Origin: a virus
Lineage: Duplodnaviria > Heunggongvirae > Uroviricota > Caudoviricetes
Direction: 5' to 3' (one strand)
IMG/VR virus record: IMGVR_UViG_2531839476_000007
Location: 1 to 12,109 of that record
DNA: 12,109 nucleotides
The translations under genes were made by a program, and so were the position numbers. Below the pieces are notes generated by a model. That model did not search any database. It was not told the DNA's origin and saw only the letters and a list, made by a program, of their open reading frames with translations. Of this stretch, positions 1 through 12,109 are shown piece after piece (positions within the stretch are counted from its first letter, which is position 1; every line of letters starts with the position of its first letter).

Positions 1-149
1 ACAAAATCTATAACCATGAATTAATTCATTCACAAGACCTGATCATGCTGCGGTCTGGTGAATTTTCTAAATCGCCTATTCGAGTTTCATTTTGCCCGTT
101 CTGTGGTGAAAGTCTGAAAACGTGGGAAGCGGAGGCAACCAGTGAATAA
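1..149 (+). CDS. 3' end of an upstream gene, 5'-truncated by the window edge; hypothetical protein with a C-terminal CxxC pair
   Basis: Frame 3 is open from the window start to TAA at 147-149 (…MLRSGEFSKSPIRVSFCPFCGESLKTWEAEATSE). Its stop overlaps the GTG start of the next ORF (GTGAATAA), typical of coupled phage genes. Not in the ORF track because it is short and partial. Confidence 0.3.
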   Translation, partial: KIYNHELIHSQDLIMLRSGEFSKSPIRVSFCPFCGESLKTWEAEATSE

Positions 150-786
150 CCGCTTTTACATGATGTGCTTGCGTGAAACTGTGGGTAATAACGCCTCATT
201 CCATTGCCATAACGGCAATGGTTACAGTTCTGATATCGATCGCGCTCATGTTTACACGCTGGAAGAAGCCCAAAAAGCCTGGAATTGTGGACGAGATATC
301 GATCAGCCTGTTTGCGCTGATAGCGTGGATGCAATGGCTGTGTGGCACGTTGATTGCCAGTACATCCCCACAGAAAGCCTGATTGAGTCAGATTGCACTG
401 CGTATGTGGCCTACAAAAAAGGTAGCTGGAACGGCAACGATGTTTACTGGCTTCAACACGGTGGATTGCCAACAGATGACTTCAGTAAAGCGACCATCTT
501 TAGCGTCGCCAACAAAAACGAACCAGGAATAGTTTGGTTGCCATTTTCCATTGCTGATGCAGCAAAGCGTCGGACGTTCAATATCAATAACTTTAACCGC
601 AGAACAATGGTTCAGGGCGCAGGTTTGGTCATGCCTGACTGGTTGAAAGAGCAGAACAGAAGAAAGAAGTCGCGAAGCGGGAAGGTGCGTTGGAATTGTC
701 CGCATTGCGGAAAAATAACCTGGCAGTACAGCCCATATGATTTTGAAGGCTGTAGTGATTACAACTGTGAAGGATGGCGAGAATGA
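142..786 (+). CDS. hypothetical phage protein, 214 aa, with a C-terminal Cys cluster (CPHCGK…CSDYNCEGW)
   Basis: ORF-track ORF. GTG start at 142 is preceded by GGAGG at 131-135 (6-nt spacing); ATGs at 160/163 are alternatives. No family recognised. Confidence 0.55.
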   Translation: MNNRFYMMCLRETVGNNASFHCHNGNGYSSDIDRAHVYTLEEAQKAWNCGRDIDQPVCADSVDAMAVWHVDCQYIPTESLIESDCTAYVAYKKGSWNGNDVYWLQHGGLPTDDFSKATIFSVANKNEPGIVWLPFSIADAAKRRTFNINNFNRRTMVQGAGLVMPDWLKEQNRRKKSRSGKVRWNCPHCGKITWQYSPYDFEGCSDYNCEGWRE

Positions 787-1529
787 CAATTGACTATCAG
801 GCACTGCGTGAGGCGGCAGAGCGTGCAATTCCGGCAATGGAACACCTGTTAATGTTGCCAGTTGATGATGATTTGTTAACTGAACAGGAACTTAAGGATT
901 ACGGTGTGGATATTGATGCGCTCAACGCCTTCAAATTTCTGACCGGACCAGAAACCGTGCTGGCACTACTGGATGAACGGGAAAGAAACCAGCAATACAT
1001 CAAACGCCGCGACCAGGAGAACGAGGATATTGCGCTAACGGTTGGGAGGCTGCTAATCGAAAACGGCCAGCTTGTTGCCGATACGCTACGCCACTTAGCT
1101 GATAACGAAATCGACTCTGATTATTTTGCTATCACCTCAACGAATGAGAACGGTACTGAAATTGATCATGAGATGGCTATTACCGATTACGCACTGCAAG
1201 CTGCCGGAACTGTAGACGAATTGGTTGCAGCGCTGGAATCCGCAGAGAAGCGCATAGCAGAACTGGAAGCACGGGAAATAAAACCAGCCAAAGGCGAAGT
1301 TCTTGTCGTTGTATCTGGTTTTACTGGTTGCGGAAAAAGCGCCATTGCCGGGGAAATAGAAATCGCGATGAAGGCTATTGGTGTACCGGTTAAGTGGACT
1401 AATGGCGATGCAGAAAAGCGCATGACTGGCGCTGACTGGCTGACAGCGATTGAGATGTACAAACCAACTGTGCGCATCGCGGAAGTTAATGTGCCACGCG
1501 CCGCTGGCATTCGCATCAAAGGAGAGTGA
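783..1529 (+). CDS. hypothetical acidic/coiled-coil phage protein (about 248 aa) with a Walker-A-like GFTGCGKS motif near the C-terminus
   Basis: ORF-track ORF 774..1529; start is ATG 774 or ATG 783 (MTIDYQALREAAERA…). Overlaps the stop of the preceding ORF. P-loop-like motif is encoded around 1314-1340. Confidence 0.6.
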   Translation: MTIDYQALREAAERAIPAMEHLLMLPVDDDLLTEQELKDYGVDIDALNAFKFLTGPETVLALLDERERNQQYIKRRDQENEDIALTVGRLLIENGQLVADTLRHLADNEIDSDYFAITSTNENGTEIDHEMAITDYALQAAGTVDELVAALESAEKRIAELEAREIKPAKGEVLVVVSGFTGCGKSAIAGEIEIAMKAIGVPVKWTNGDAEKRMTGADWLTAIEMYKPTVRIAEVNVPRAAGIRIKGE

Positions 1530-1534
1530 GTGAT

Positions 1535-1732
1535 ATGGATAAAAACACCACTGCTTACTGGAATCTGTCACTTGATACCGAATGCCCCAAATGTGGTCAC
1601 AATTTCGATCTGCTCTGTGATGCTGATTTCTGGGAGTTTTCTGGAGCAAAACAGGCATGTGAAGAAATAAAAGGTTACGAAACATGCTGCCCAGAATGTA
1701 ACCATGAATTTAAAACAGATTTTGTGTATTGA
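1535..1732 (+). CDS. small Cys-rich zinc-ribbon-like protein, about 65 aa (CPKCGH … CCPECNH)
   Basis: ORF-track ORF 1526..1732. ATG at 1535 sits 8 nt after GGAGAG (1521-1526); the GTG at 1526 overlaps the previous stop. Two CxxC pairs about 40 residues apart. Confidence 0.55.
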   Translation: MDKNTTAYWNLSLDTECPKCGHNFDLLCDADFWEFSGAKQACEEIKGYETCCPECNHEFKTDFVY

Positions 1733-1742
1733 GGCATAACGA

Positions 1743-2933
1743 ATGACCACTTTTACTAAAGAACAATTAATAGAGATAATTAAGCGCAATATAACGGTTA
1801 TGGATCGTTATCCTGATTTAGTAACTGCACAAATGGATCTGGAAGTATACAAAATCGCGCTGGCATCACTGGAAGCAGAACCAGTTGCTTATATTTTCAA
1901 ACATCCGGCCGGGAAATTATTCTGGGCTTTAACGGATGAAAGCAATAAAGAGCAACCGGACGTTATTCCTGTTTATGCTGACTCACCTGCGCCGGTTGTG
2001 CCGGATGAAATAGACGTAAACGATGTACCAAGGGCGGTGACATATTTCAAGACACACAGAGATTGTTACGCAGATGGCTGGAACGCCTGCCGCGCCGCCA
2101 TGCTTCAGTCCGGAAACTTTCGGGAAAATAAGAATTCGTCAACCAATAATTTTCGGGAAATCGCGGAAACGTCAACCAACTATCCGGTAATTCCTAGTGA
2201 GGTGTTGTCCGCAATCCTGAAGGTTGCCAAGATTCGTGCCGATTTCGATGATTTTGACGGTGACAGGCGAGGTATCGGTGATTGTCTGGATGAGGCTGAG
2301 CAAGAGCTTATCGTTACCATTAACAAATATGCCAGTCAGTTGGCAGCAGAACCGATAGCGACTAATGACGTTCGAGAGCAAACAGCCGTTCCGCCAGTTC
2401 CTGTAATACAGGCTGATGTCGCGCAGGCAATTGAAAAACTCAAACGGAAATTAGTGGAATGCAATCGCTATAACTACTGCGCAGATGCAGTTAAGGGCGT
2501 TGAGTATGCCTGCCACGCTGCCATGCTTCAGGGTAGCCAACCTGTAAGCCAAACTTACAAGTTTCCAGTTAATACACCTTGCCAGGATGCGCCAGCCCAT
2601 ATCTGGCTGCAAACAGCTGGAGTATGGCCAGAAGATGGCGAGTTAAGCGAATTAACGTGGTGCAGCCACAATCAGCACCATGATGACACGCTATATGTTC
2701 GAGCTGACTTGGTAAATGGCAATTCTCAGGTAACTCCGGATGGTTGGATAAGCTGTAGTGAGCGAATGCCCGCTCAAGATGATTGGATTTTAATTTATTC
2801 AAAGCACGGTGAGTATATGGCAGGACAGGTGCAAGGGGAATACGTGGAGTTGAGCGACGGCACTTTATCCTGGTTAGGGAACGCCTTGTTCTGGATGCTG
2901 CTACCAGAACCTCCCCAGGAGGCAGGTCAATGA
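1743..2933 (+). CDS. DUF551-type phage protein, 396 aa, with internal duplications
   Basis: ATG 1743 preceded by GAGG at 1731-1734. The C-terminus (WISCSERMPAQDDWILIY…FWMLLPEPPQ) resembles the DUF551 pattern recalled from enterobacterial prophage proteins (W…ER(L/M)P…W…(M/L)P(L/E)PP). Contains a 33-bp tandem duplication and a repeated AAMLQ motif. Confidence 0.7.
   Translation: MTTFTKEQLIEIIKRNITVMDRYPDLVTAQMDLEVYKIALASLEAEPVAYIFKHPAGKLFWALTDESNKEQPDVIPVYADSPAPVVPDEIDVNDVPRAVTYFKTHRDCYADGWNACRAAMLQSGNFRENKNSSTNNFREIAETSTNYPVIPSEVLSAILKVAKIRADFDDFDGDRRGIGDCLDEAEQELIVTINKYASQLAAEPIATNDVREQTAVPPVPVIQADVAQAIEKLKRKLVECNRYNYCADAVKGVEYACHAAMLQGSQPVSQTYKFPVNTPCQDAPAHIWLQTAGVWPEDGELSELTWCSHNQHHDDTLYVRADLVNGNSQVTPDGWISCSERMPAQDDWILIYSKHGEYMAGQVQGEYVELSDGTLSWLGNALFWMLLPEPPQEAGQ
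2118..2183 (+). repeat. in-frame imperfect 2 x 33-bp tandem duplication inside the DUF551 gene
   Basis: Unit 1 (2118-2150) tttcgggaaaataagaattcgtcaaccaataat and unit 2 (2151-2183) tttcgggaaatcgcggaaacgtcaaccaactat share 24/33 nt, including exact 10-mer and 9-mer blocks. They encode FRENKNSSTNN / FREIAETSTNY. Confidence 0.8.
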
Positions 2934-3013
2934 GCTGGCCTGAAGCATTCGCAACGGTAGGAATTGTGATGGCGGCAGCACTGGGTTTGTATTCAATTTG
3001 TCGCTGGTGGTAA
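2930..3013 (+). CDS. unlisted small hydrophobic peptide, 27 aa (MSWPEAFATVGIVMAAALGLYSICRWW)
   Basis: Perfect Shine-Dalgarno AGGAGG at 2917-2922, 7 nt before ATG 2930. The ATG overlaps the upstream TGA (ATGA) and the stop TAA 3011-3013 lies 2 nt before the next ATG. Predicted single transmembrane helix. Below the track's 60-aa cutoff. Confidence 0.45.
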   Translation: MSWPEAFATVGIVMAAALGLYSICRWW

Positions 3014-3015
3014 CG

Positions 3016-3249
3016 ATGAGGAAATTAACTTTTGTAGTCGAATTTGAGGATGGTAAAGAGCCACCTGTTAGCGCCAATCTTGATGTTGCTGGTGGAAGGC
3101 TTGTTTCGGTTCTATTTGGTGACTACCGAGATGACTTCTTCCAACCAGAAGAAGTTGATGTAGTGCGAGAGGCATTAAACGAGTTAAGTGTTGACAACGA
3201 TGATGCTCATGCGGAAATCATCCAAAAAATGGAACTGCTAACTCACTAA
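3016..3249 (+). CDS. hypothetical acidic protein, 77 aa
   Basis: ORF-track ORF 2998..3249 (TTG start); ATG 3016 (MRKLTFVVEF…) is more plausible and sits directly after the small ORF. No family recognised. Confidence 0.5.
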   Translation: MRKLTFVVEFEDGKEPPVSANLDVAGGRLVSVLFGDYRDDFFQPEEVDVVREALNELSVDNDDAHAEIIQKMELLTH

Positions 3250-3297
3250 ATTATCAATTATGGTGCTATAACCTACGACACCGAGAGAAAATTTATA

Positions 3298-3420
3298 ATG
3301 TCAAAAGTAAATGTTTTGATTTTTTCAGCAATTGTTGGCTTTGGTTTTACTGCCGGAGTGCAGATTTATATTACGTGGGAAAAAATCATCAACTACGCAT
3401 GGAGTTGTTTTATTAAGTGA
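3298..3420 (+). CDS. unlisted small membrane protein, 40 aa (MSKVNVLIFSAIVGFGFTAGVQIYITWEKIINYAWSCFIK)
   Basis: ATG 3298 to TGA 3418-3420. The stop overlaps the GAGG RBS of the next gene. An extended -10-like TGCTATAAC lies at 3264-3272 upstream. Hydrophobic N-terminal helix. RBS is weak (GAGAGA). Confidence 0.35.
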   Translation: MSKVNVLIFSAIVGFGFTAGVQIYITWEKIINYAWSCFIK

Positions 3421-3427
3421 GGTAAGT

Positions 3428-3721
3428 ATGTGGAGAGGTAATAATCATGGCAAAAGCCAGATGATACTTACCGAATATAAGCTAGACCACAAAACCAATA
3501 AATCACGCTCAGTATATTTGCTCCGGCACAATAGTCGCGTAAGAAATACCGTGCTGGAACAAAATCTGACAGTTGAAATGGATAATTACGGGGGATTCAA
3601 GCCAACAATTTCACTTGATGATTTTCCTCGTGGTTTAAGCGAAAGAGAAGCAATGCTGAAATTAGCAGAATGGCTACAAAGATTAAGCATTGCTATTGAA
3701 GATAACTGGTCTGAACCTTAA
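3428..3721 (+). CDS. hypothetical protein, about 97 aa
   Basis: In frame with track ORF 3332..3721. ATG 3428 is preceded by GAGG (3419-3422, 5-nt spacing). The track's upstream start at 3332 has no RBS and lies inside the small ORF. Confidence 0.5.
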   Translation: MWRGNNHGKSQMILTEYKLDHKTNKSRSVYLLRHNSRVRNTVLEQNLTVEMDNYGGFKPTISLDDFPRGLSEREAMLKLAEWLQRLSIAIEDNWSEP

Positions 3722-3727
3722 ATTTAT

Positions 3728-4102
3728 ATGATGACACTAAAACATTTTCTTGACCGCCCATTATGGGCGGCAGCCGCAGGCTATGACTTTAATTATATGG
3801 ATTGCATGTCTTATACCGCCAATGCATACGACCATTCCTTCAGTCTGCTGTTTAATTCTTTAAGAATATTGCCGCAAACAGAAGTTGGAGAGCTTCATTT
3901 ATGGCTATTGGGCTTTATCGCGGCTGTCGTTGGTATTGCTGTATGGCCTTTTATTTTCTGGCTGGTGGCTGTTGTAGTGTGGGTTAAGTGCAAGACATAC
4001 CGGAAAAAGTATTTCTTAGGTGATGGAATGACTGATATTGCCAAAATGAACATTGAAGAATGGACTAAGGAATGTGAAAAGAAATGGCGCAAAAAGAAAT
4101 GA
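3728..4102 (+). CDS. hypothetical membrane protein, 124 aa
   Basis: ORF-track ORF. Long hydrophobic segment LWLLGFIAAVVGIAVWPFIFWLVAVVVWV followed by a basic C-terminus (…KKWRKKK). The 3' end overlaps the next gene. Confidence 0.55.
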   Translation: MMTLKHFLDRPLWAAAAGYDFNYMDCMSYTANAYDHSFSLLFNSLRILPQTEVGELHLWLLGFIAAVVGIAVWPFIFWLVAVVVWVKCKTYRKKYFLGDGMTDIAKMNIEEWTKECEKKWRKKK

Positions 4103-4734
4103 CCAGAATCACTGAAGAGCGCATATCAGAGATTATTTCCCGTATCGAAATGTATGGTCACGGTGCTGGATATACGGCAGATGAAGTATTGGAAATAGCC
4201 CAGCAGATGCTGGCCTTGAGACAAAAAGAGCAACATGAAAGTAATACGTGTAGATTGAATTTTGAGCATTGGCTGGAACAGCAACGCGGGAAAATCGATG
4301 TGGACTGTGGTTGTGTGTCCACTGAAACATTCATGCACTGGCTGCGGGTAGCTTACGAGGCTGGCAACTATCCGGATATTCCGGATAGTTCGGTGCCAGC
4401 ACCAGGAAAGGGCGTCACCGGTGAACGTATCCGAATTAAGCCGCATGTTTATCGCGAACTGGTTAACCGTCTCCACGATACAGCGATCAAGTGTGCTGGC
4501 ACCCAGCAATTACGAGAAAGAATTAGCCGTGTTTTGGGCGACGTTATTACACCAGATCATCATAAACAAGCCGAGAAAAGTGGCCTGGAAAGGTGTCGCC
4601 TTGAGGCGGCATTAAACATTAAGCCGGGGCATACGCTTGGCATTATTGATGCACTATTGGTTCATAAGATGGCCAGGGCTTTATTGCCGCTGGTGGCTGA
4701 AAAGCATGAGGTGGACCATGCCAACGAAAGCTGA
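4084..4734 (+). CDS. hypothetical soluble phage protein, 216 aa
   Basis: ORF-track ORF. Start ATG 4084 overlaps the previous gene (alternative ATG 4099). No family recognised. Confidence 0.55.
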   Translation: MAQKEMTRITEERISEIISRIEMYGHGAGYTADEVLEIAQQMLALRQKEQHESNTCRLNFEHWLEQQRGKIDVDCGCVSTETFMHWLRVAYEAGNYPDIPDSSVPAPGKGVTGERIRIKPHVYRELVNRLHDTAIKCAGTQQLRERISRVLGDVITPDHHKQAEKSGLERCRLEAALNIKPGHTLGIIDALLVHKMARALLPLVAEKHEVDHANES

Positions 4735-5002
4735 ATTACAGGTGCGCGTAGATGAGCTTGAAAAAGAGAACGCGAGCCTCAAAAAAATGCTGTCGCGGGC
4801 GGAAAGGGAATTATCAGGCAAATTATTGCCAGAAGAACTGCCACCAGCAGATATACCTGATCGAGTGTCCTGGTGGATGAAGTATTTCCGTGCACCGTGG
4901 GAGGCGTTTTGGTGCTACGACCATCGCAGATGGTGTGATGAACTTGATAGCAATTTTCCCTACTTTGCGGAAGGGAACACCTGCCCTCAATGCAGGGGAT
5001 AG
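4718..5002 (+). CDS. hypothetical protein, about 94 aa, coiled-coil N-terminus and C-terminal CPQCRG
   Basis: In frame with track ORF 4637..5002. ATG 4718 is preceded by GAGGTGG (4708-4714) and overlaps the end of the previous gene. Last gene of the left-hand + strand block. Confidence 0.5.
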   Translation: MPTKAELQVRVDELEKENASLKKMLSRAERELSGKLLPEELPPADIPDRVSWWMKYFRAPWEAFWCYDHRRWCDELDSNFPYFAEGNTCPQCRG

Positions 5003-5337
5003 CATTTGACGAAATCGATCACCCTATCCTGAACTTCAGAAAGAAGGTCTTTTTCACGCGCCAGGACGTCAGGATATTGACGTTCTGGCCTTACCAGATG
5101 CCGGAGCTTCCCATTAAGCAGAATGGCCTCAGAAAACACTTTTACGCTGTGCTTTATCCCCTCTGTTTCACTTTTCAGCGTCAAAATAAAGCGCAATTGC
5201 TTATTAGCCTGATTCGGATTCAATACACGAATTTGCAGTTCGTCTATGCTGTTCCGCAATGGGATTGATGCCACCACACTGGTGCAGTCTCTGATTGTCT
5301 GAATTGAACGGCTAACATTGAGAACGTTATTGTGCAT
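4987..5337 (-). CDS. doubtful antisense ORF, 116 aa, in the gap between the left gene block and hot
   Basis: Only long ORF covering the 367-bp gap 5003-5369, but there is no convincing RBS (AGGAG lies about 14 nt upstream of the ATG) and no recognisable family. A + strand ORF 4990..5268 competes for the same DNA. Confidence 0.2.
   Translation of the reverse strand: MHNNVLNVSRSIQTIRDCTSVVASIPLRNSIDELQIRVLNPNQANKQLRFILTLKSETEGIKHSVKVFSEAILLNGKLRHLVRPERQYPDVLAREKDLLSEVQDRVIDFVKCYPLH
5060..5089. repeat. 12-bp-stem inverted repeat (hairpin) centred on GACGTC
   Basis: gccaggacgtca (5060-5071) / ggatat loop / tgacgttctggc (5078-5089); 11 Watson-Crick pairs plus one G-T. Lies 58 nt after the stop at 5002. 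No adjacent U-tract on either strand. Confidence 0.5.
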
Positions 5338-5369
5338 GTGCCTGATCCACTAACTCCTGGAGGTTTCTT

Positions 5370-5621
5370 GTGTCAGATCGAAATATAGCAGCTAAAAGCC
5401 AGGAAGAGCGAGACAAGGTGAACGTAGACCTTGCCGCCAGCGGCGTTGCTTACAAAGAACGGCTGAATATACCTGTGATTGCAGAGCAGGTGGCCCGTGA
5501 GCAACCGGAAAACCTGCGCGCCTATTTCATGGAACGGCTACGGCACTACCGGCAGTTAAGCCTCCAGTTGCCAAAAGGGAGCGATCCGGTGTATCAGAAC
5601 GAGGATGCACCAAAAAAATAA
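5370..5621 (+). CDS. hot: Hot, homolog of the DNA polymerase III theta subunit (HolE), 83 aa
   Basis: GTG 5370 is preceded by GGAGG (5359-5363). The core [43 protein letters not shown] matches my recollection of E. coli theta ([43 protein letters not shown]). Position before humD fits the P1 gene order. Confidence 0.8.
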
Positions 5622-5680
5622 CGGCAAGATGGGGGAGAAATGTGATTAGCCCCCAGCGTGGCGCGCCTACAAACCCCGCT

Positions 5681-5726
5681 TTCACAAACTATGCCTTTTC
5701 AATGTATACTGTATGAATAAACAGTA
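5681..5726 (+). promoter_or_regulatory. SOS-type promoter with a LexA box overlapping the -10, upstream of humD
   Basis: -35 TTCACA (5681-5686), -10 TATACT (5705-5710), and TACTGTATGAATAAACAGTA (5707-5726), which fits the LexA consensus TACTG-N10-CAGTA. RBS GAGG 5732-5735 and ATG 5745 follow. Confidence 0.8.
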
Positions 5727-5744
5727 TCATTGAGGTAAAACGCT

Positions 5745-6134
5745 ATGGGCTTCCCTTCTCCTGCGGCGGATTATGTTGAAAGCCGAATTTCTCTTGATCA
5801 GCAGATAATTAGACATCCTTCAGCGACCTACTTCATGCGGGCAGCTGATAGCCATCACCGTGAGGGAATATTGCAGGGTGCTTTGCTGGTGGTTGATTCC
5901 TCGCTTACTCCGGTTGATGGTTCTCTGCTTGTGTGCGCTATGGAGGGTGAATATCGCATAAAGAGATACAGGAAGTATCCGCGCCAGCACCTGGAGGACT
6001 TAAGCACCGGGAAGAAAGAGGCGTTACCAGTAGATGACGATGGATACACGGGCAGTAATGCTGTTTTTGGTGTGATCACTCATGTCATCAATGATGCCCG
6101 AAGTGGGGAATTTGATGATTGTCCGGTTATTTAA
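5745..6134 (+). CDS. humD: HumD, a UmuD'-like S24-family protein lacking the UmuD N-terminal pro-segment, 129 aa
   Basis: Begins MGFPSPAADYVE…, aligning with UmuD residues just after its Cys24-Gly25 self-cleavage site (…CG/FPSPAADYVE). Ser in ADSH and Lys in YRIKRYRK align with the UmuD Ser/Lys dyad. An in-frame TAA at 5736-5738 rules out a longer N-terminus. Confidence 0.85.
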   Translation: MGFPSPAADYVESRISLDQQIIRHPSATYFMRAADSHHREGILQGALLVVDSSLTPVDGSLLVCAMEGEYRIKRYRKYPRQHLEDLSTGKKEALPVDDDGYTGSNAVFGVITHVINDARSGEFDDCPVI

Positions 6135-6169
6135 GCTGCAAAGTGCTGGTGCTTTATGCCTGTGAAGTT

Positions 6170-6198
6170 TATAATTGTGTACACATAACGAGTACACG
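6170..6198 (+). promoter_or_regulatory. phd-doc promoter -10 and two palindromic operator half-site pairs
   Basis: Perfect -10 TATAAT (6170-6175), then perfect 10-bp palindrome TGTGTACACA (6176-6185) and imperfect palindrome CGAGTACACG (6189-6198, 8/10), centres 13 bp apart. This is the arrangement expected for Phd autorepression. Confidence 0.6.
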
Positions 6199-6206
6199 AG
6201 GTGTTT

Positions 6207-6428
6207 ATGCAATCCATTAACTTCCGTACCGCGCGTGGCAACCTTTCTGAAGTGCTCAACAATGTTGAAGCCGGGGAAGAGGTTGAAATCACCCGCAGAG
6301 GCCGTGAGCCAGCAGTAATTGTCAGCAAGGCTACTTTCGAAGCCTACAAAAAAGCGGCGCTGGATGCTGAATTTGCATCCCTGTTTGACACCCTGGACTC
6401 CACCAACAAGGAACTGGTTAACCGATAA
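6207..6428 (+). CDS. phd: Phd antitoxin (prevent host death), 73 aa
   Basis: [73 protein letters not shown] matches my recollection of P1 Phd. Stop TAA overlaps the doc ATG (TAATG at 6426-6430). Confidence 0.92.
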
Positions 6429-6808
6429 TGAGACATATATCACCGGAAGAACTTGTTGCGCTTCATGATGCGAATATAAGCCGCTACGGCGGCCTGCCGG
6501 GAATGTCTGATCCGGGTAGGGCAGAGGCCATTATCGGGAGAGTTCAGGCCAGAGTTGCCTACGAAGAGATCACCGACCTTTTCGAAGTCTCCGCCACCTA
6601 CCTGGTGGCTACAGCGAGAGGGCATATATTCAATGATGCCAATAAGCGTACCGCGCTAAACAGTGCGCTGCTATTTCTACGCCGTAACGGGGTGCAGGTA
6701 TTTGATTCACCTGAACTGGCAGACCTTACCGTAGGCGCTGCGACTGGCGAGATATCTGTATCTTCTGTCGCCGACACGTTACGTAGATTGTATGGTTCTG
6801 CGGAGTAG
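6428..6808 (+). CDS. doc: Doc toxin (death on curing), Fic-fold kinase, 126 aa
   Basis: [39 protein letters not shown]… matches recalled P1 Doc and contains the Fic-type motif HIFNDANKR. Translationally coupled to phd. Confidence 0.92.
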
Positions 6809-6812
6809 ATTA

Positions 6813-6992
6813 ATGGCACGTAAATACAACAAGTTGTCCCGTGAAGCGTTAAAGATGCTTCTTGATGGCGTGAGCCGCCGCAAGGTAAAGCAATACCTGG
6901 TTGGTAAGCAAATTGGAGTCAGGACCGCTATTGCTGTGTTATGCCGTCAGGAAATGGTTGTGCTTAAACAGAGAATGCCGGGCAGCAGATAA
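6813..6992 (+). CDS. pdcA: PdcA-like small basic protein (post-doc), about 59 aa
   Basis: ATG 6813 preceded by GGAG (6802-6805); in frame with track ORF 6792..6992. Named from its position directly after doc in the P1 gene order, not from sequence recognition. Confidence 0.45.
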   Translation: MARKYNKLSREALKMLLDGVSRRKVKQYLVGKQIGVRTAIAVLCRQEMVVLKQRMPGSR

Positions 6993-7019
6993 AGCCCAAT
7001 CAGTGATTAAAGGTGTGAT

Positions 7020-8063
7020 GTGAAAGCCATAATTACTCCCTTTGTACAGAAAGAGCTTGGCCTCGCCACGTTCAAAGTGGATCAGGAGGTCAGAAAGCTG
7101 GTGGAGGCTGGCCGTAAATTTATTATGGAGCCGGTGCCGCGTGAGTTAATCGAGCACATGGAAGACGGCCTCGTTGTTACCGAGCAAACCATGGCAACAA
7201 ATGAGGCGTTGCAGCCGTTTTTTAACAGCGATGAACTGTTTCGCCGTATTGGTGGAATTGACTCGCTGGTGGCGTGGTTGCGTAGGAAAGAGGGTCAATG
7301 CCAGGCCGCAGATCGTAGTTGGTGTGACAACCATATTGTCCACGCTGAACGAGACAATAGCGCGGTGTTGTTGTGCTGGCATCACGATAACCATTACCGG
7401 ATGCGTGGTTTTAATGAGCTGAAAGAAACGCTGCACAATAATCGCGTTAACTGGATACTGGATGTCGCCCGTCAGGAAATGGGCCTTTCAAATAGCCATG
7501 ATTTAAGTATTCAGGAGCTGTGCTGGTGGGCTTTCATGCGCAACATGATGCACCTGATGCCGGAAGAAGTCTGCCGCATATCAATAAATAAGATGAAGGC
7601 TACTCCGCAGGATAGCGGACCTCTGAAAGAGGCGGATATTCGCCCGTATGACGATCGCGCTACAGCATATGTTCAGATGATGGAAGAACGCGCCGCGCCG
7701 ATGCGTGCAAAAGTATGCCCTGTGGATGTTGACTCCGACCCAGGTATGGCGCATTTCAAAATACCAAAACTTCAATCGCTAAAATTGCCCGAGTACATGG
7801 ACTTTGTGGCTTCCCGTCCATGCTGTGGCTGTGGAGCTGCGGGAGCTGGCGCTCACATTACGCCTTATATCGTTCGTCATAGTCGATTATGCGCGCATGA
7901 CATTTATGCTATTCCTCTGTGCCAGTCATGCCAGCGTGATATTGAGCGTGACCGCGATAATTGGGAGAAGACGCACGGTAGGCTGGCGATGCATCAACGA
8001 TTGTTCTTTGATTACGCGCTTGGAGTCGGCGCTATCACAAGTCATTCGTCGAGTGTTAGATAA
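7020..8063 (+). CDS. pdcB: PdcB-like protein, 347 aa, with Cys/His-rich HNH-like motifs
   Basis: GTG 7020 preceded by AGGTG. Contains CWHHDNH and a C-terminal cluster PCCGCG…[29 protein letters not shown] resembling the HNH pattern CxxC…H…N…LCxxC. Name is by position in the P1 order. Confidence 0.65.
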
Positions 8064-8064
8064 A

Positions 8065-8107
8065 ATTGCTCTAATGTATTGCTATTTCTTTAATCGAGGG
8101 TATTATA
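8065..8107 (+). promoter_or_regulatory. C1-repressor operator-like site overlapping the -35 of a putative lpa promoter
   Basis: ATTGCTCTAATGTATTG (8065-8081) matches the recalled asymmetric C1 operator consensus ATTGCTCTAATAAATTT at 14/17, first 11 positions exact. Candidate -35 TTGCTA (8079-8084) and -10 TATTAT (8101-8106) / ATTATA (8102-8107). Confidence 0.55.
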
Positions 8108-8115
8108 TTCGACGT

Positions 8116-8139
8116 TGATTAGTTGACATGGGCTAATCA
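8116..8139. repeat. 7-bp perfect inverted repeat TGATTAG-N10-CTAATCA in the lpa leader
   Basis: TGATTAG (8116-8122) and CTAATCA (8133-8139) flank a spacer containing TTGACA (8123-8128). Sits between the putative -10 and the lpa RBS AGGTGA (8142-8147). Confidence 0.5.
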
Positions 8140-8151
8140 GTAGGTGACAGG

Positions 8152-8604
8152 ATGTTACTTAACTGGCAGGGACGCCACTTCATGGAAATAAATCACTCAC
8201 GAATAACATCGTACGAGATTGCGGATTACATGATCCGCACTAAATCTCTTCTATCAGCGAAAGAACTCGCAGCAATTCTTGAAAAGGAATACCCGCATCT
8301 GGATGTCGATAAGCGCGATGTTTATCTGCGCTTAAAGGCTATCGCTGTGTCTAAGTATTCGTCTGTTTTGATTGATGACAGTACACGCCCACGTAGATTT
8401 CAGATCCACTCTCTGAATCCTGAATTCTTTCGCCGCAGCCGCGCTCCGCGCCGGTTTGATGAAAAACTCCAGAACGAACTCTATATGACGCAGGACGAAA
8501 AGGAACGCCGGGAGCACCAGCCTTGGGTGATGGCGCGTCAACTTTTCAATAAGGTGGTCCGTCAGCACCGTCATTACGGTAATGCCACATCCGCACGTAT
8601 CTGA
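8152..8604 (+). CDS. lpa: Lpa-like late promoter activator (P1 gene 10), 150 aa
   Basis: ORF-track ORF; ATG 8152 with RBS AGGTGA (alternative ATG 8182, MEINHSRI…). Assigned from its position immediately upstream of pacA and the C1-operator-like site upstream. I do not recall the Lpa sequence itself. Confidence 0.6.
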   Translation: MLLNWQGRHFMEINHSRITSYEIADYMIRTKSLLSAKELAAILEKEYPHLDVDKRDVYLRLKAIAVSKYSSVLIDDSTRPRRFQIHSLNPEFFRRSRAPRRFDEKLQNELYMTQDEKERREHQPWVMARQLFNKVVRQHRHYGNATSARI

Positions 8605-8614
8605 TTGATTGCTT

Positions 8615-8633
8615 GCCCGTTCCGGGCCTTTTG
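8615..8633 (+). terminator. weak intrinsic terminator-like hairpin between lpa and pacA
   Basis: GCCCG-TTC-CGGGC (8615-8627) followed by CTTTTG (8628-8633). Short 5-bp GC stem and only four U's, so at best a partial terminator. Confidence 0.3.
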
Positions 8634-8690
8634 ACATGTGACTTTCGTTACCCTCGCGTCAAAAAGAGTTTTATACGAAAGGAAGCATAA

Positions 8691-9884
8691 GTGACCTGGG
8701 ACGATCACAAGAAGAATTTTGCTCGCCTGGCGCGAGATGGTGGTTACACCATCGCACAGTATGCCGCCGAGTTTAATCTTAACCCTAATACCGCACGTCG
8801 TTATCTCCGTGCCTTCAAAGAAGACACCAGGACAGCGGACAGCCGCAAGCCAAATAAGCCAGTCAGGAAGCCTCTAAAAAGCATGATCATTGATCACGCT
8901 AATGATCAACGTGCATGTGATCACATTGTGGCTGAAATGGCTGAAAAACAAAGAGTTAATGCTGTTGTCAGTGCCGCAGTCGAGAACGCTAAGCGCCAAA
9001 ATAAGCGCATAAATGATCGTTCTGATGATCATGACGTGATCACCCGCGCCCACCGTACCTTACGTAATCGCCTGGAACGCGACACCCTGGATGATGATGG
9101 TGAACGCTTTGAATTCGAAGCTGGCGATTACCTGATAGATAACGTTGAAGCGCGGAAGGCCGCGCGCGCTATGTTGCGTCGGTCCGGGGCCGATGTTCTG
9201 GAAACCACTCTTCTGGAAAAGTCTCTTTCTCATCTCCTTATGCTGGAGAACGCCAGGGATACGTGTATTCGCCTGGTGCAGGAAATGCGCGATCAGCAAA
9301 AAGACGATGATGAAGGTACTCCGCCTGAATACCGTATCGCGAGCATGCTAAACAGCTGTTCCGCGCAGATAAGCAGCCTGATCAACACCATTTACAGCAT
9401 CCGGAATAACTATCGAAAAGAAAGCCGGGAGGCGGAAAAGCACGCTTTATCTATGGGGCAAGCTGGCATTGTTAAGCTGGCATACGAACGAAAGCGTGAA
9501 AATAACTGGTCAGTGCTGGAAGCGGCTGAATTCATCGAGGCGCATGGAGGAAAAGTGCCTCCCCTGATGCTGGAGCAAATCAAAGCCGATCTGCGTGCTC
9601 CTAAGACCAATACCGATGATGAGGAAAACCAAACAGCATCTGGCGCTCCATCACTTGAAGATCTGGATAAAATCGCGCGAGAACGGGCCGCCAGCCGCCG
9701 CGCTGATGCCGCATTGTGGATTGAGCATCGTAGAGAAGAAATTGCCGATATCGTCGATACAGGTGGTTATGGTGATGTCGATGCGGAAGGCATATCAAAC
9801 GAAGCATGGCTTGAACAGGATCTGGACGAAGACGAGGAGGAAGACGAAGAAGTTACCCGCAAACTGTACGGGGATGATGATTAA
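8691..9884 (+). CDS. pacA: PacA, small terminase / pac-site recognition subunit, 397 aa
   Basis: GTG 8691 with RBS AAGGAAG (8680-8686). Begins [28 protein letters not shown]… and contains the pac hexamer clusters within its 5' third, as described for P1 pacA. Stop overlaps the pacB ATG (TAATG at 9882-9886). Confidence 0.88.
8884..9042 (+). other. pac packaging site: 4 + 3 TGATC(A/G) hexamers, each carrying a GATC Dam site
   Basis: Left cluster TGATCA at 8884-8889, 8891-8896, 8903-8908, 8918-8923. Right cluster TGATCG 9014-9019 and TGATCA 9026-9031, 9037-9042. Span of about 160 bp inside pacA matches the recalled architecture of the P1 pac site. Confidence 0.8.
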
Positions 9885-11368
9885 TGGCCAGAAGTTGCGT
9901 AACGGACCCACGTTGGCGCGAGCTTGTGGCGCTATATCGTTATGACTGGATTGCGGCCGCTGATGTGTTGTTTGGGAAGACACCAACCTGGCAGCAGGAT
10001 GAGATCATTGAGTCCACGCAGCAGGACGGCAGTTGGACAAGTGTGACCTCCGGCCATGGTACTGGTAAATCGGATATGACGAGTATCATTGCAATACTCT
10101 TCATCATGTTTTTCCCCGGCGCTCGCGTCATTCTGGTCGCTAACAAAAGACAGCAAGTCCTTGATGGTATTTTCAAATACATAAAGAGCAATTGGGCTAC
10201 TGCTGTTAGCAGATTCCCGTGGTTGTCGAAGTATTTCATTCTTACAGAAACGTCTTTTTTTGAGGTGACTGGCAAGGGTGTTTGGACAATATTGATAAAG
10301 TCCTGTCGCCCCGGGAATGAGGAGGCGTTGGCTGGTGAACACGCCGATCATCTCTTGTATATCATCGACGAAGCGTCGGGTGTGAGTGATAAAGCATTCA
10401 GTGTGATAACAGGTGCGCTGACCGGTAAGGATAACCGTATTCTGCTTCTTTCCCAGCCTACGCGACCTTCAGGCTATTTCTACGATTCACACCACAGACT
10501 AGCTATTCGCCCGGGAAATCCTGATGGATTGTTTACTGCGATAATACTGAATAGTGAAGAATCTCCGCTTGTAGATGCAAAATTTATACGAGCAAAACTT
10601 GCGGAGTATGGCGGTCGTGATAACCCCATGTACATGATCAAAGTACGTGGTGAATTTCCCAAATCTCAAGATGGCTTTCTTCTTGGTCGTGATGAGGTTG
10701 AGCGGGCGACGCGGCGAAAGGTCAAGATTGCCAAAGGATGGGGCTGGGTTGCATGTGTTGACGTTGCTGGTGGCACAGGACGAGATAAGTCCGTTATTAA
10801 TATCATGATGGTGTCCGGCCAGCGAAATAAACGCCGTGTAATCAACTATCGTATGCTGGAATACACAGACGTTACAGAAACGCAGTTAGCCGCCAAGATT
10901 TTCGCAGAATGTAACCCAGAACGGTTCCCGAACATAACCATAGCTATTGATGGCGATGGCTTGGGGAAATCGACGGCTGATCTAATGTACGAACGCTATG
11001 GCATTACCGTCCAGCGTATCCGCTGGGGTAAAAAGATGCACAGCCGTGAAGATAAAAGCCTTTATTTCGATATGCGCGCTTTCGCGAATATTCAGGCGGC
11101 AGAAGCTGTAAAATCAGGGCGTATGAGGCTTGATAAGGGGGCTGCGACTATAGAGGAAGCATCAAAGATACCGGTAGGGATAAATTCCGCAGGTCAATGG
11201 AAGGTGATGTCAAAGGAAGATATGAAGAAAAAACTCAACCTGCACTCACCGGACCATTGGGATACATATTGTTTCGCTATGTTGGCGAACTATGTTCCCC
11301 AGGATGAAGTGCTTAGCGTCGAAGACGAAGCGCAGGTTGATGAAGCTCTGGCATGGCTTAATGAATAA
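9884..11368 (+). CDS. pacB: PacB, large terminase (ATPase/nuclease) subunit, 494 aa
   Basis: ATG 9884 coupled to the pacA stop. Walker A GHGTGKS and Walker-B-like [11 protein letters not shown] are present. Size and position match P1 pacB. Confidence 0.88.
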
Positions 11369-11418
11369 CTCATTAACCATGCCGGATAGAAACTATTGCG
11401 CGCTTTCGGGGTTGTCGT

Positions 11419-12109
11419 TTACTGGCTGCCCCTTCTTAGTTTTACGGCTGCGCGTAACTGATGCGGCTGATTTGACCTTTTTCTCTTCGCGAGTGATGGC
11501 AATTGTTTTTTTACATTTTCAATATCTGCCAGGCGATATATTTTTGCCTGCGGCCAGCGGTCGCAGATGATCGGTTCTATAGAGTCATAAAGGCTAAATT
11601 TTGCTTTCTCGAATTCACCGTTGATGATGATTCCATCACGGAGAGTTTCATCGCAGATAAACACACCACACAGCGGCACATGGTAACTAACTGATTTACC
11701 ATCATTGTAGTTAGGGCTACTGGAAATGTAATGGACGCGCAGCATTGTTTCGCTAAAGCCGTGTACACGCATACGGAATTTTTCATCCTCCGGGTACTGC
11801 TTCATTAGCTCTTTTGTTGCTTCCAGGTTCTCTATGTATTTCGCACTGTGCTCATTGATCCCCGCGCTTTTCTGGATGCGAATGTCCTTATCAATCAGAT
11901 GAATAATGCGGCCAGCGGTCATGTTGACGCTGTTCACAGCTTCTGTCTGATAAGTTGTAACCTTACGCACACCGCGAAGGATGTTAGGCACTGGATATAA
12001 AATAGTCTTTGGGATATTGAGGTCTGGGTACTGTTCCAGTTCTCGCGCCATTAAAGTCCATTTATCAATTTCAGCCTGAATGCTGTCCGTTTCTTTGAAC
12101 GGCAGAACG
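11419..12109 (-). CDS. c1: c1 immunity repressor, 3' portion only; the 5' end lies beyond the window
   Basis: The - strand frame is open from the window edge (…VLPFKETDSIQAEIDKWTLMARELEQ…) to the stop at 11419-11421, so the track's 210-aa ORF is an N-terminally truncated view. Convergent with pacB, as in the P1 map. Sequence recognition is partial. Confidence 0.65.
   Translation of the reverse strand, partial: VLPFKETDSIQAEIDKWTLMARELEQYPDLNIPKTILYPVPNILRGVRKVTTYQTEAVNSVNMTAGRIIHLIDKDIRIQKSAGINEHSAKYIENLEATKELMKQYPEDEKFRMRVHGFSETMLRVHYISSSPNYNDGKSVSYHVPLCGVFICDETLRDGIIINGEFEKAKFSLYDSIEPIICDRWPQAKIYRLADIENVKKQLPSLAKRKRSNQPHQLRAAVKLRRGSQ

Follow-up and report, generated by a model that had tools for sequence, protein, structure and literature searches.

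An almost never annotated 27-codon micro-gene of lambdoid prophages, which travels with its own Shine-Dalgarno sequence and probably encodes a membrane peptide

The question raised by this locus is whether a 27-codon open reading frame, which is absent from the ORF list and squeezed between two genes of a tailed phage, is a real gene, and if so, what its product might do. The window, namely the whole stretch of 12,109 nucleotides that was analysed (positions 1 to 12,109 of the IMG/VR virus record IMGVR_UViG_2531839476_000007), carries the following features around this frame.

1743..2933, + strand: upstream gene of 396 aa, coding for a mosaic protein whose C-terminus carries a DUF551 domain (ORF list and domain match)
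2917..2922, + strand: Shine-Dalgarno (SD) sequence AGGAGG, 7 nt before the ATG; it lies within the 3' terminal part of the preceding gene and belongs to the mobile cassette
2930..2933, + strand: ATGA start/stop overlap with the upstream gene, a geometry suited to termination-reinitiation coupling
2930..3013, + strand: 27-codon micro-gene, ATG to TAA, encoding MSWPEAFATVGIVMAAALGLYSICRWW, a predicted single hydrophobic helix with conserved ends
3016..3249, + strand: downstream gene of 77 aa (MRKLTF...), phrog_3876 (ORF list and PHROG match)
3298..3420, same operon as the micro-gene: phrog_5525, a 40-aa small membrane protein

The layout described by the first-pass annotation agrees with the window sequence in every detail: AGGAGG is separated from the start codon by a 7-nt spacer (2923-2929), the ATG at 2930 overlaps the TGA of the DUF551 gene (2931-2933), and the TAA (3011-3013) is followed 2 nt later by the next ATG at 3016. 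Moreover, the SD-like GGTGG of the downstream gene is made from the last codons of the micro-gene (TGG TGG).

Taken by itself, a 27-codon ORF is within chance, since the ORFs of 20 aa or more that overlap this 1 kb of the window number 18; however, a conserved frame together with third-position variation and a pN/pS of 0.36 goes far beyond chance. In fact the family comprises 34 peptide variants and 56 unique DNA sequences, with 27 codons throughout except for SJ46 (24 codons), and within this set of unique DNA versions the interior pN/pS is 0.42, while the entropy at codon positions 1, 2 and 3 is 0.54, 0.31 and 0.99, so that the variation peaks at the third position. A second sample consisted of 118 sites picked via the upstream flank only, without reference to the ORF; here 62 copies are intact and 3 disrupted (62/65 intact), and about 50 of the sites hold other genes in the slot. 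With flank-anchored sampling, free of ORF bias, the pN/pS is 0.36 (bootstrap 95% CI 0.24-0.52), with none of 2000 replicates reaching 1, and E5, F7, G11, C24, R25 and G27 are fixed with their codons varying synonymously. W3, P4, A6, G11, R25 and W26 were likewise found invariant despite synonymous change. The conserved ends of the peptide can be written as MxWPEAF...YSICRW, although the 24-aa allele of SJ46 is without the YSICR motif, which means that the motif is not indispensable in every lineage. Codon 2 always begins with A (S/T/N/I), including in samples that were not selected with an ATGA-containing pattern. As judged from the substitutions, a pN/pS of 0.36 reads as moderate constraint, which is what one would expect of a membrane helix with a core that has only to stay hydrophobic. 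The first-pass annotation had suggested comparing the frame, the ribosome-binding site and the synonymous and non-synonymous changes across P1-like genomes; the comparison finds the frame intact in hundreds of diverged copies, the SD kept and the amino acids constrained. Such patterns make the 27-codon frame almost certainly a real protein-coding gene.

It is barely conceivable, then, that the frame is no gene at all, being either a chance ORF in a conserved non-coding element (an RNA, a terminator or a recombination site) or the reflection of an opposite-strand gene. Nearly all records leave the ORF without annotation, and one antisense frame likewise has a pN/pS of 0.36 and no stops; on the other hand, third-position periodicity is evident, the start, stop and SD are conserved, no Rfam family matches, and the folding z-score is +0.72. 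The antisense frame in question shares its wobble positions with the sense frame, which is a known mimic of coding, and it takes more than 50 boundary combinations in 83 contexts, often with no start codon, hence has no conserved start or stop. The 58-aa antisense ORF of the window itself (2901..3077) lies in a frame having stops in 39 of the 56 copies and a pN/pS of 2.2. Antisense coding was therefore rejected, and so was an RNA element, with neither an Rfam match nor a structure signal. By the codon-level analysis, the non-gene explanation is largely refuted.

As for the initiation signals, the duplex with the anti-SD sequence has a median energy of -11.6 kcal/mol over 36 distinct upstream contexts versus a background mean of -2.8, and only 0.1% of the background windows have a duplex as strong. 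Unrelated upstream genes converge on ...AGGTGAATCA-ATGA or ...GGAGGATATTTTACG-ATGA, and every upstream context cluster shows the start/stop overlap, as ATGA or, for copies of the BP-4795 type, as TGATG; in 18 of 22 of these clusters the upstream frame is open for at least 66 codons. The 5-bp CCUCC/GGAGG hairpin seen in the window is not conserved in the other contexts. Such an arrangement invites the thought that only the act of translation matters, the ORF being a coupling or spacer element that prevents Rho-dependent polarity or passes ribosomes to the next gene, as the ATGA overlap upstream, the 2-nt gap downstream in the window, the GGTGG drawn from the last codons, and the many contexts with the next gene at +2 or +4 would fit. 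This explanation seems very improbable, since it does not account for the selection on amino acids (pN/pS 0.36, with the invariant residues listed above) or for a length fixed at 27 codons; furthermore, the same peptide is kept where a terminator or a separate promoter directly follows, so that there is nothing to couple to.

The borders of similarity coincide with those of the frame. Similarity between contexts begins at the SD/ATG and stops at the stop codon, and in blastn the alignments with Stx phages and with many E. coli chromosomes cover the ATG-to-stop interval and nothing beyond it. The flanks fall into about 22 clusters per side and 48 combinations; one identical allele occurs in at least 4 upstream and at least 7 downstream contexts, and 6 or more alternative genes are found behind the same SD junction. 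Upstream genes without DUF551 include 933W p77, ArgO145 gp10, TH18 EaA and SJ46 eaa, for which reason an obligate partnership with DUF551 was rejected. A DUF551-peptide fusion by -1 frameshift was rejected as well: DUF551 contexts do leave the peptide frame open on its upstream side, but in 933W it is closed 7 codons upstream, there is no slippery site, and the 121-aa 'DUF551' members that share the 90% cluster proved not to be fusions. Downstream, the contexts include DUF4222-xis-int, a hok/sok promoter, intrinsic terminators and others, and in many of them the next gene starts at +2 or +4. A simple terminator detector flagged only 5 of 54 downstream contexts, and some further ones show long-loop hairpins and T-runs by eye, so that the count is no firm measure of how often the ORF ends its operon. 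In many Stx phages the cassette directly adjoins a hok/sok module or a toxin-antitoxin pair. Whatever the combination, the micro-gene always closes the accessory 'ea' gene block on its promoter-distal side, and its ATG overlaps with the stop codon of the gene before it. Among phage genomes of E. coli and its relatives it is a self-contained cassette, handed on whole between lambdoid prophages and a number of P1/SJ46-like phage-plasmids. The argument of the first-pass annotation, that the tight packing is hard to explain unless the ORF is translated, thus gains from frame conservation, purifying selection, a kept SD and overlap, and cassette borders that coincide with ORF borders, the support for translation being evolutionary rather than direct.

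The distribution of the micro-gene is wide. Copies of the 27-codon frame turned up in 95 phage records and 178 plasmids; among complete E. coli genomes, 1,457 of 5,426 (~27%) carry it, with 2,232 copies in E. coli altogether and a maximum of 6 in one genome. Its carriers are mostly lambdoid prophages including Stx prophages, for example 933W, VT1/VT2-Sakai, BP-4795 and ArgO145. The idea of the first-pass annotation that this is a feature of P1-like genomes has to be revised, for it is mainly an accessory cassette of lambdoid prophages and only a subset of the P1/SJ46-like plasmids carries it; it is absent from RCS47, and RCS47/P1-type records matched the surrounding region of the window in parts only. 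No family member was found in any of the five prophage regions of E. coli K-12, and K-12 Ribo-seq catalogues are inapplicable because this strain has no copy. In spite of its prevalence the micro-gene is almost never annotated. A 40-aa in-frame extension of the peptide, searched in large protein collections, returned only 8 unnamed clusters; the peptide strings were not found in searchable full-text literature, nor in the supplements of the Sakai Ribo-seq and Enterobacteriaceae microproteome papers, where the EHEC (Sakai) small-gene survey left out ORFs below its 30-aa minimum by design, so that its silence on a 27-aa ORF is uninformative. Altogether, no name, family model or literature was found for the micro-gene.

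With regard to the product, AlphaFold2 (AF2) predicts a single helix over residues 3-26 (W3-W26), long enough to span a membrane, with a mean pLDDT of 85.6, and residues 6-24 have a GRAVY of about 2.0. The peptide has one E and one R, thus zero net charge, and the helix is without polar or charged residues. The earlier description of the product as essentially one transmembrane helix is borne out by this hydrophobic core and by the confident single-helix model, and the product is very likely a membrane peptide as far as such predictions go. No family match was obtained in Pfam, PHROG, NCBIfam, PADLOC or PDB; Pfam DUF7512, at 16.5 bits against a gathering threshold of 27 and over 19 residues of hydrophobic helix, was rejected. 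A test for conservation along one face of the helix, a pattern that would have spoken for a packing interface, gave no significant result (p = 0.33).

Combining these lines, we consider it somewhat better than an even guess that the locus is a translated cassette, made of its own SD and 27 codons, whose inner-membrane peptide modulates a partner protein. The micro-gene would be translated by termination-reinitiation coupling and its strong SD whenever the operon carrying it is transcribed, and in the window, translation of the 396-aa upstream gene would deliver ribosomes to it. In lambdoid phages transcription would come from the pL early-left operon, hence after induction or infection. The peptide would insert in the inner membrane with its N-terminus out and its C-terminus in, the acidic W-P-E/D-A-F end being periplasmic and the Y-S-I-C-R-W end lying at the cytoplasmic face by the positive-inside rule; this proposed topology depends on that rule and a single Arg. 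It may then act via its conserved juxtamembrane ends and the invariant G11xxxA15 rather than by pore formation, its target for binding and modulation being a membrane protein that belongs to the host, to the carrying phage or to a phage that is entering the cell. No conserved neighbour points to a partner, and no membrane-complex genes stand among the neighbours examined, so that synteny of the KdpF/CydX type was not seen.

That the peptide is a modulator rather than a toxin is a preference we state tentatively and at somewhat less than even confidence; the modulator is favoured over a Hok-like toxin because of the strong SD, the translational coupling, the missing antisense RNA and the zero net charge. 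According to the competing explanation, the peptide would damage membranes so as to kill the host or time its lysis, acting like the type I toxins Hok, Ibs, ShoB, DinQ and TisB; it would be silent in lysogens only through repression of the early operon, and when that operon is switched on, the inner membrane would lose its potential or become permeable. The peptide is comparable to type I toxins in size and hydrophobicity (27 aa, one helix); phages carry it, many Stx phages directly beside a hok/sok module or a toxin-antitoxin pair; and by established lambdoid biology its operon would be one that is repressed in lysogens. However, neither Hok/Gef nor any other toxin model matches it (Pfam, NCBIfam, PHROGs, PADLOC), and no promoter-like site was found on the minus strand across the ORF, nor any Rfam match, sRNA or unusual RNA structure. 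The flanks outside the SD-to-stop unit are unrelated between contexts, which means that no conserved antitoxin RNA travels with the ORF, and a strong accessible SD with translational coupling stands against the repressed translation of type I toxins. The lack of net charge and of any polar or charged helix residue also speaks against it, and the adjoining hok module has its own promoter, beginning after the micro-gene stop, and has no repeat in common with the cassette. A 9-aa antisense resemblance inside the hok leader of 933W was put down to chance, there being no inverted repeat with the cassette. In the contexts examined, lysis genes never adjoin the micro-gene, its neighbours being the ea block, xis/int, hok and terminators, and a location in a holin/lysis cassette was not found. 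The likeness to toxin peptides drawn by the first-pass annotation thus comes down to size and hydrophobicity, with no toxin model match, antisense RNA or repressed translation, and we regard a toxin or lysis-timing role as unlikely.

A more specific version of the modulator idea is that of a superinfection-exclusion or anti-phage accessory peptide, which would either obstruct some inner-membrane component required by competing phages to bring in their DNA, or shield the lysogen or the infected cell in another way. The lambdoid early-left accessory end is a site of non-essential fitness genes, and the slot of the micro-gene is this moron-like end, beside toxin-antitoxin and hok modules. The cassette is optional, as seen from the DUF551-flank sites where other genes take its place, and an accessory trait under selection would fit its high prevalence and its repeated presence within single genomes. 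A published precedent is DicB, a prophage small protein which protects by inhibiting inner-membrane receptor proteins (PMC6832061). Against this, PADLOC gives no match, no contextual link leads to any receptor, and a repressed early operon would give a stable lysogen no protection without a constitutive promoter, none of which was detected in the window. We therefore hold exclusion to be quite improbable in this specific form. Returning to the modulator reading in general, a bolder form of it, which is speculative though perhaps not far-fetched, is that phages use the peptide as a dedicated effector, one of the smallest known, whose WPEAF and YSICRW ends dock on a particular inner-membrane machine of E. 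coli, which might be a protease, a transporter or a route of DNA entry. If this were true, a quarter of E. coli strains, including major Stx-phage lysogens, would carry a factor for host manipulation or superinfection exclusion that has escaped recognition and passes from phage to phage as an 84-nt plug-in, bringing its own ribosome-binding site.

Annotation systematically overlooks small membrane proteins, though several of them are potent regulators, and the present micro-gene is unusually well backed by comparative evidence, being carried by 27% of complete E. coli genomes, by the reference Stx phages 933W, VT1-Sakai and VT2-Sakai, and by P1-like resistance-associated phage-plasmids. It also shows that gene exchange between lambdoid and P1-like elements can work on units as small as an SD and 27 codons. 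A new family model would correct thousands of genome annotations, and an 84-nt gene is a cheap and concrete target for asking what phage accessory micro-proteins do.

Compared with known systems, the micro-gene resembles the type I toxins (Hok/Gef, IbsC, ShoB, DinQ, TisB) in that these are very small (19-50 aa), form one hydrophobic helix and are often found on prophages or plasmids, but it differs from them by having no toxin-model match, antisense RNA or structured leader, and by its strong SD, operon coupling and zero net charge. K-12 YpdJ (46 aa, CPS-53 prophage, between yfdT/DUF551 and torI) occupies the same genomic slot, its tiny ORF running over the end of a DUF551 gene and preceding an excisionase gene; its sequence MGYDSRLDHLAATSWYPFFNNVTTRGEIIEPYSLTLDEACQFLKIS, however, is polar and resembles an excisionase remnant, and it was rejected as a homolog. 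Closer at hand, phrog_5525 is also a tiny one-helix protein of the same operon, and in one viral contig a homolog of it takes the post-DUF551 SD slot of the micro-gene, although its sequence is unrelated and it is already in PHROGs and annotated in some records. Small inner-membrane proteins of E. coli include KdpF (29 aa), CydX/CydH, AcrZ, MgtS, PmrR and MgrB, and proteins of this sort act on a larger membrane protein by binding it and are chromosomal, usually beside or co-regulated with their partner. The micro-gene shares with them a single helix of 25-50 aa, conserved juxtamembrane residues and a small-xxx-small motif (here G11xxxA15), while it differs in being phage-borne with shuffled neighbours, and neither sequence similarity nor a match in a PDB profile search links it to them. 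Accessory 'ea'/moron cassettes and mosaic junctions at gene boundaries are well established in lambdoid-phage genomics, and the micro-gene is like such cassettes in occupying the distal early-left slot before DUF4222-xis-int, in being optional and in having its homology breakpoints at gene borders; unlike its neighbours it has been missed by annotation, and its 84 nt are unusually few for an exchange unit. Its family can be placed as a new one within a known kind, namely the phage-encoded small single-pass membrane proteins.

IncY, P1/SJ46-like phage-plasmids from E. coli and Salmonella match the window at 99% identity. The genes of the window run from an ea-like accessory block by way of hot, phd/doc and the terminase genes as far as c1. 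The features around the 27-codon open reading frame (ORF), called here the micro-gene, are as follows.

Features of the window around the micro-gene
1743..2933, plus strand: upstream gene, a 396-aa mosaic of which only the last ~60 residues are a DUF551 domain
2917-2922, plus strand: Shine-Dalgarno (SD) sequence AGGAGG
2930..3013, plus strand: micro-gene, 27 codons plus TAA, product MSWPEAFATVGIVMAAALGLYSICRWW
3016..3249, plus strand: downstream gene, 77-aa protein, phrog_3876
3298..3420, plus strand: another very small one-helix ORF of this operon, 40 aa, product MSKVNVLIFSAIVGFGFTAGVQIYITWEKIINYAWSCFIK, full-length match to phrog_5525

The packing described by the first-pass annotation proved exact to the base when the sequence was re-read: the SD lies 7 nt from the micro-gene ATG, this ATG shares bases with the TGA of the 396-aa gene (ATGA), and the downstream ATG at 3016 is two bases past the micro-gene stop. 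The upstream gene is itself a patchwork, its several parts matching six or more different PHROGs, which suggests repeated recombination inside it. In the window the AGGAGG can also pair with a CCUCC five bases upstream in a hairpin (2910..2922, plus strand; 5-bp stem, 3-nt loop) present in the MFE prediction as well as the centroid one, and this would mask the SD unless the upstream gene is being translated; other contexts have CCGCC, so that the hairpin is not conserved and is probably incidental. A 27-codon ORF is by itself unremarkable in this kilobase, where 18 ORFs of 20 aa or more are found, and the case for it rests on cross-sequence comparison.

Every copy of the family has 27 codons with the exception of that in Salmonella phage SJ46 (record L002, 2309..2383), a 24-codon allele with the product MSWPEAFAIVGVAMAIAAIFIFWG, which keeps the N-terminal motif and both junctions and is without the YSICR motif; the same 24-aa peptide has also been deposited from a phage MAG. 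The pattern used to collect copies prescribed M-x-W-P-[DE]-A...R-W-x-stop and nothing else. It gave 56 unique DNA versions, and in these no stop occurs in the 18 interior codons left free, which have an entropy of 0.54, 0.31 and 0.99 at codon positions 1, 2 and 3 and a pN/pS of 0.42. Because such a set could favour intact ORFs, viral contigs were rescanned with a pattern lying wholly inside the commonest upstream flank. At the 118 sites anchored in this way an intact micro-gene comes next in 62 and a disrupted one in 3 (stops at codons 3, 20 and 26), while at the others quite different genes are attached at the same SD junction. The pN/pS over all codons in this sample is 0.36 (bootstrap CI 0.24-0.52; 0 of 2,000 replicates reach 1), and E5, F7, G11, C24, R25 and G27 are fixed despite synonymous codon change. 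Conservation of the frame and of the encoded residues, proposed by the first-pass annotation as a check on the ORF, is borne out. Pseudogene copies are seen in two IMG/VR contigs with stops at codons 20 and 26, and in phage POCJ13 (L009, 1201..1284; W3 to TAG), a record separate from the 65-copy sample.

Other explanations for the conserved stretch were also considered. An antisense frame has a similar pN/pS; it shares wobble positions with the sense frame, its start and stop are not conserved (more than 50 boundary combinations in 83 contexts), and its translation is polar and featureless. The window also has a 58-aa antisense ORF, whose frame is interrupted in 39 of the 56 copies. The micro-gene region has no match in Rfam, folds no better than shuffled sequences (z = +0.72), and contains promoter-like and terminator-like sites in numbers within shuffle expectation. 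A frameshift fusion to DUF551 was rejected, the peptide frame being closed seven codons upstream in phage 933W and no slippery site being visible. What the comparison establishes is a conserved, selected, SD-equipped and stop-overlapping micro-gene for a hydrophobic helix, swapped as a unit; we judge it a real gene.

The swapping is seen at its edges, as the matches of the window to Stx phages and many chromosomes run from the ATG, or from slightly before it, as far as the stop codon. The flanks of the 129 copies in which they are complete fall into about 22 sequence clusters per side and 48 upstream/downstream combinations, and the commonest allele, identical to the letter, follows four or more kinds of upstream gene and precedes seven or more downstream contexts. 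The upstream genes are in part DUF551 proteins, and those without this domain include 933W p77, ArgO145 gp10, TH18 'EaA' and SJ46 'eaa'; downstream follow the phrog_3876 gene at +2 (P1-like), DUF4222-xis-int at +4, a hok/sok promoter, hairpin-plus-T-run terminators and others. In all contexts the upstream stop overlaps the micro-gene ATG, as ATGA or, for BP-4795-type copies, as TGATG. Moreover, the anti-SD duplex energy over 36 distinct contexts has a median of -11.6 kcal/mol, a strength reached in only 0.1% of background windows, and such an overlap with a strong SD is the classical geometry for a putative termination-reinitiation coupling. The micro-gene always lies at that end of the accessory 'ea' block which is farthest from the promoter; in lambdoid phages, by established phage biology, the block belongs to the pL early-left operon. 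Judged by its junctions, the micro-gene is a mobile cassette bringing its own predicted ribosome-binding site.

Several observations concern the same junctions. In IMG/VR loci six or more unrelated genes follow one and the same DUF551 C-terminal/SD junction, ...CCGCAGGAGGTGAATCA-ATG; among them are xis-like and exonuclease-like genes and several small membrane ORFs. The junction behaves as a recombination linker would where two genes meet. A phrog_5525 homolog, MNKCNALLYAMVIGFGLVAGIRVYITWESLINLAWSAIRG, fills the post-DUF551 SD slot in one viral contig, and this slot seems to gather small membrane proteins. A hok/sok module neighbours about 40 of 134 micro-gene copies; in 933W (L004, 1588..1660) it (hokW) appears to start directly after the micro-gene stop codon, and the flank aligns by eye with what we take to be the 5' end of R1 hok mRNA, ~45 nt downstream.

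As for the product, M1, W3, P4, A6, G11 and W26 are invariant and E5, A15, C24 and R25 nearly so; the termini, M-x-W-P-E-A-F and Y-S-I-C-R-W-G, carry most of the conservation, and the core between them varies in sequence but is hydrophobic in every case (GRAVY ~2). AlphaFold2, run on the single sequence with four non-native residues added for minimum length, gives a single predicted helix spanning W3-W26 (mean pLDDT 85.6), in agreement with the single transmembrane helix supposed from the sequence alone. The acidic residue near the N-terminus and the sole basic residue near the C-terminus suggest, by the positive-inside rule, an N-out/C-in orientation. Conservation on one helical face is not significant (p = 0.33), so the G11xxxA15 motif is a lead and not evidence.

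The peptide is probably translated along with the accessory operon and inserted into the inner membrane. As to its role we favour, by analogy with small regulatory membrane proteins, a peptide that would bind a membrane protein. One specific version would be superinfection exclusion, with a precedent in the prophage protein DicB (PMC6832061). A Hok-like toxin is rated less probable, though the peptide may still be toxic: the resemblance to toxin peptides noted in the first-pass annotation holds for the small hydrophobic helix, but the peptide has no net charge, its helix lacks polar residues, no toxin model matches it, and no antisense RNA or translational repression device accompanies the cassette. 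The idea that translation alone matters and the peptide is irrelevant conflicts with the selection acting on the amino acids, and with the same peptide being kept where a terminator or an independent promoter directly follows.

The micro-gene family is widespread. A tblastn search with the 27-aa peptide gives 95 phage records, with 80% or more of the peptide covered in 93, at identities down to ~50-58%; most are lambdoid, such as 933W, VT1-Sakai, VT2-Sakai, Stx2 II, Min27, BP-4795, ArgO145 and many Stx-converting phages. By blastn the micro-gene is present in 178 plasmids and, among complete E. coli genomes, in 1,457 of the 5,426 searched; the 2,232 occurrences in these genomes (2,071 chromosomal) number up to six per genome. 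In a one-genome-per-species scan credible matches are confined to Escherichia and Shigella, the rest being chance matches with internal stops or tiny contigs identical to E. coli phage alleles. Two such short contigs, from Xanthomonas pisi (L017, 431 nt) and Acinetobacter idrijaensis (L022, 369 nt), have peptides identical to E. coli phage/plasmid versions, and most likely reflect assembly contamination rather than a wider host range.

Annotation of the micro-gene is absent from 813R1, 933W, ArgO145, Stx2 II, BP-4795, POCJ13, TH18, PhiR12_1, VT1-Sakai and VT2-Sakai, and likewise across the PGAP-annotated plasmids and chromosomes inspected. A few submitters deposited the product as 'hypothetical protein' or 'bacteriophage protein', and PGAP now and then outputs N-terminally extended products of 43-45 aa. 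The peptide has zero matches among Pfam, PHROG, NCBIfam and PADLOC models and PDB sequences, and its strings were not found in the searchable literature or the supplements of two relevant smORF surveys; an EHEC Ribo-seq survey excluded ORFs below 30 aa and is hence blind to it.

E. coli K-12 has no copy. There the slot is occupied by ypdJ (L212, 12095..12235), annotated as the 46-aa YpdJ and overlapping the end of yfdT, which in K-12 corresponds to the DUF551 gene, yet it is unrelated to the micro-gene; its last residues, ...EPYSLTLDEACQFLKIS, look like the N-terminal part of an excisionase or AlpA-type protein, and ypdJ may be a gene remnant and not a real small protein. The micro-gene family appears to be unnamed, unmodelled and uncharacterised in spite of its prevalence, while its kind is well known: a phage-borne small membrane protein, an optional accessory cassette at a mosaic junction; and bulk catalogues of phage-borne smORFs are available (e.g. 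PMC11188072).
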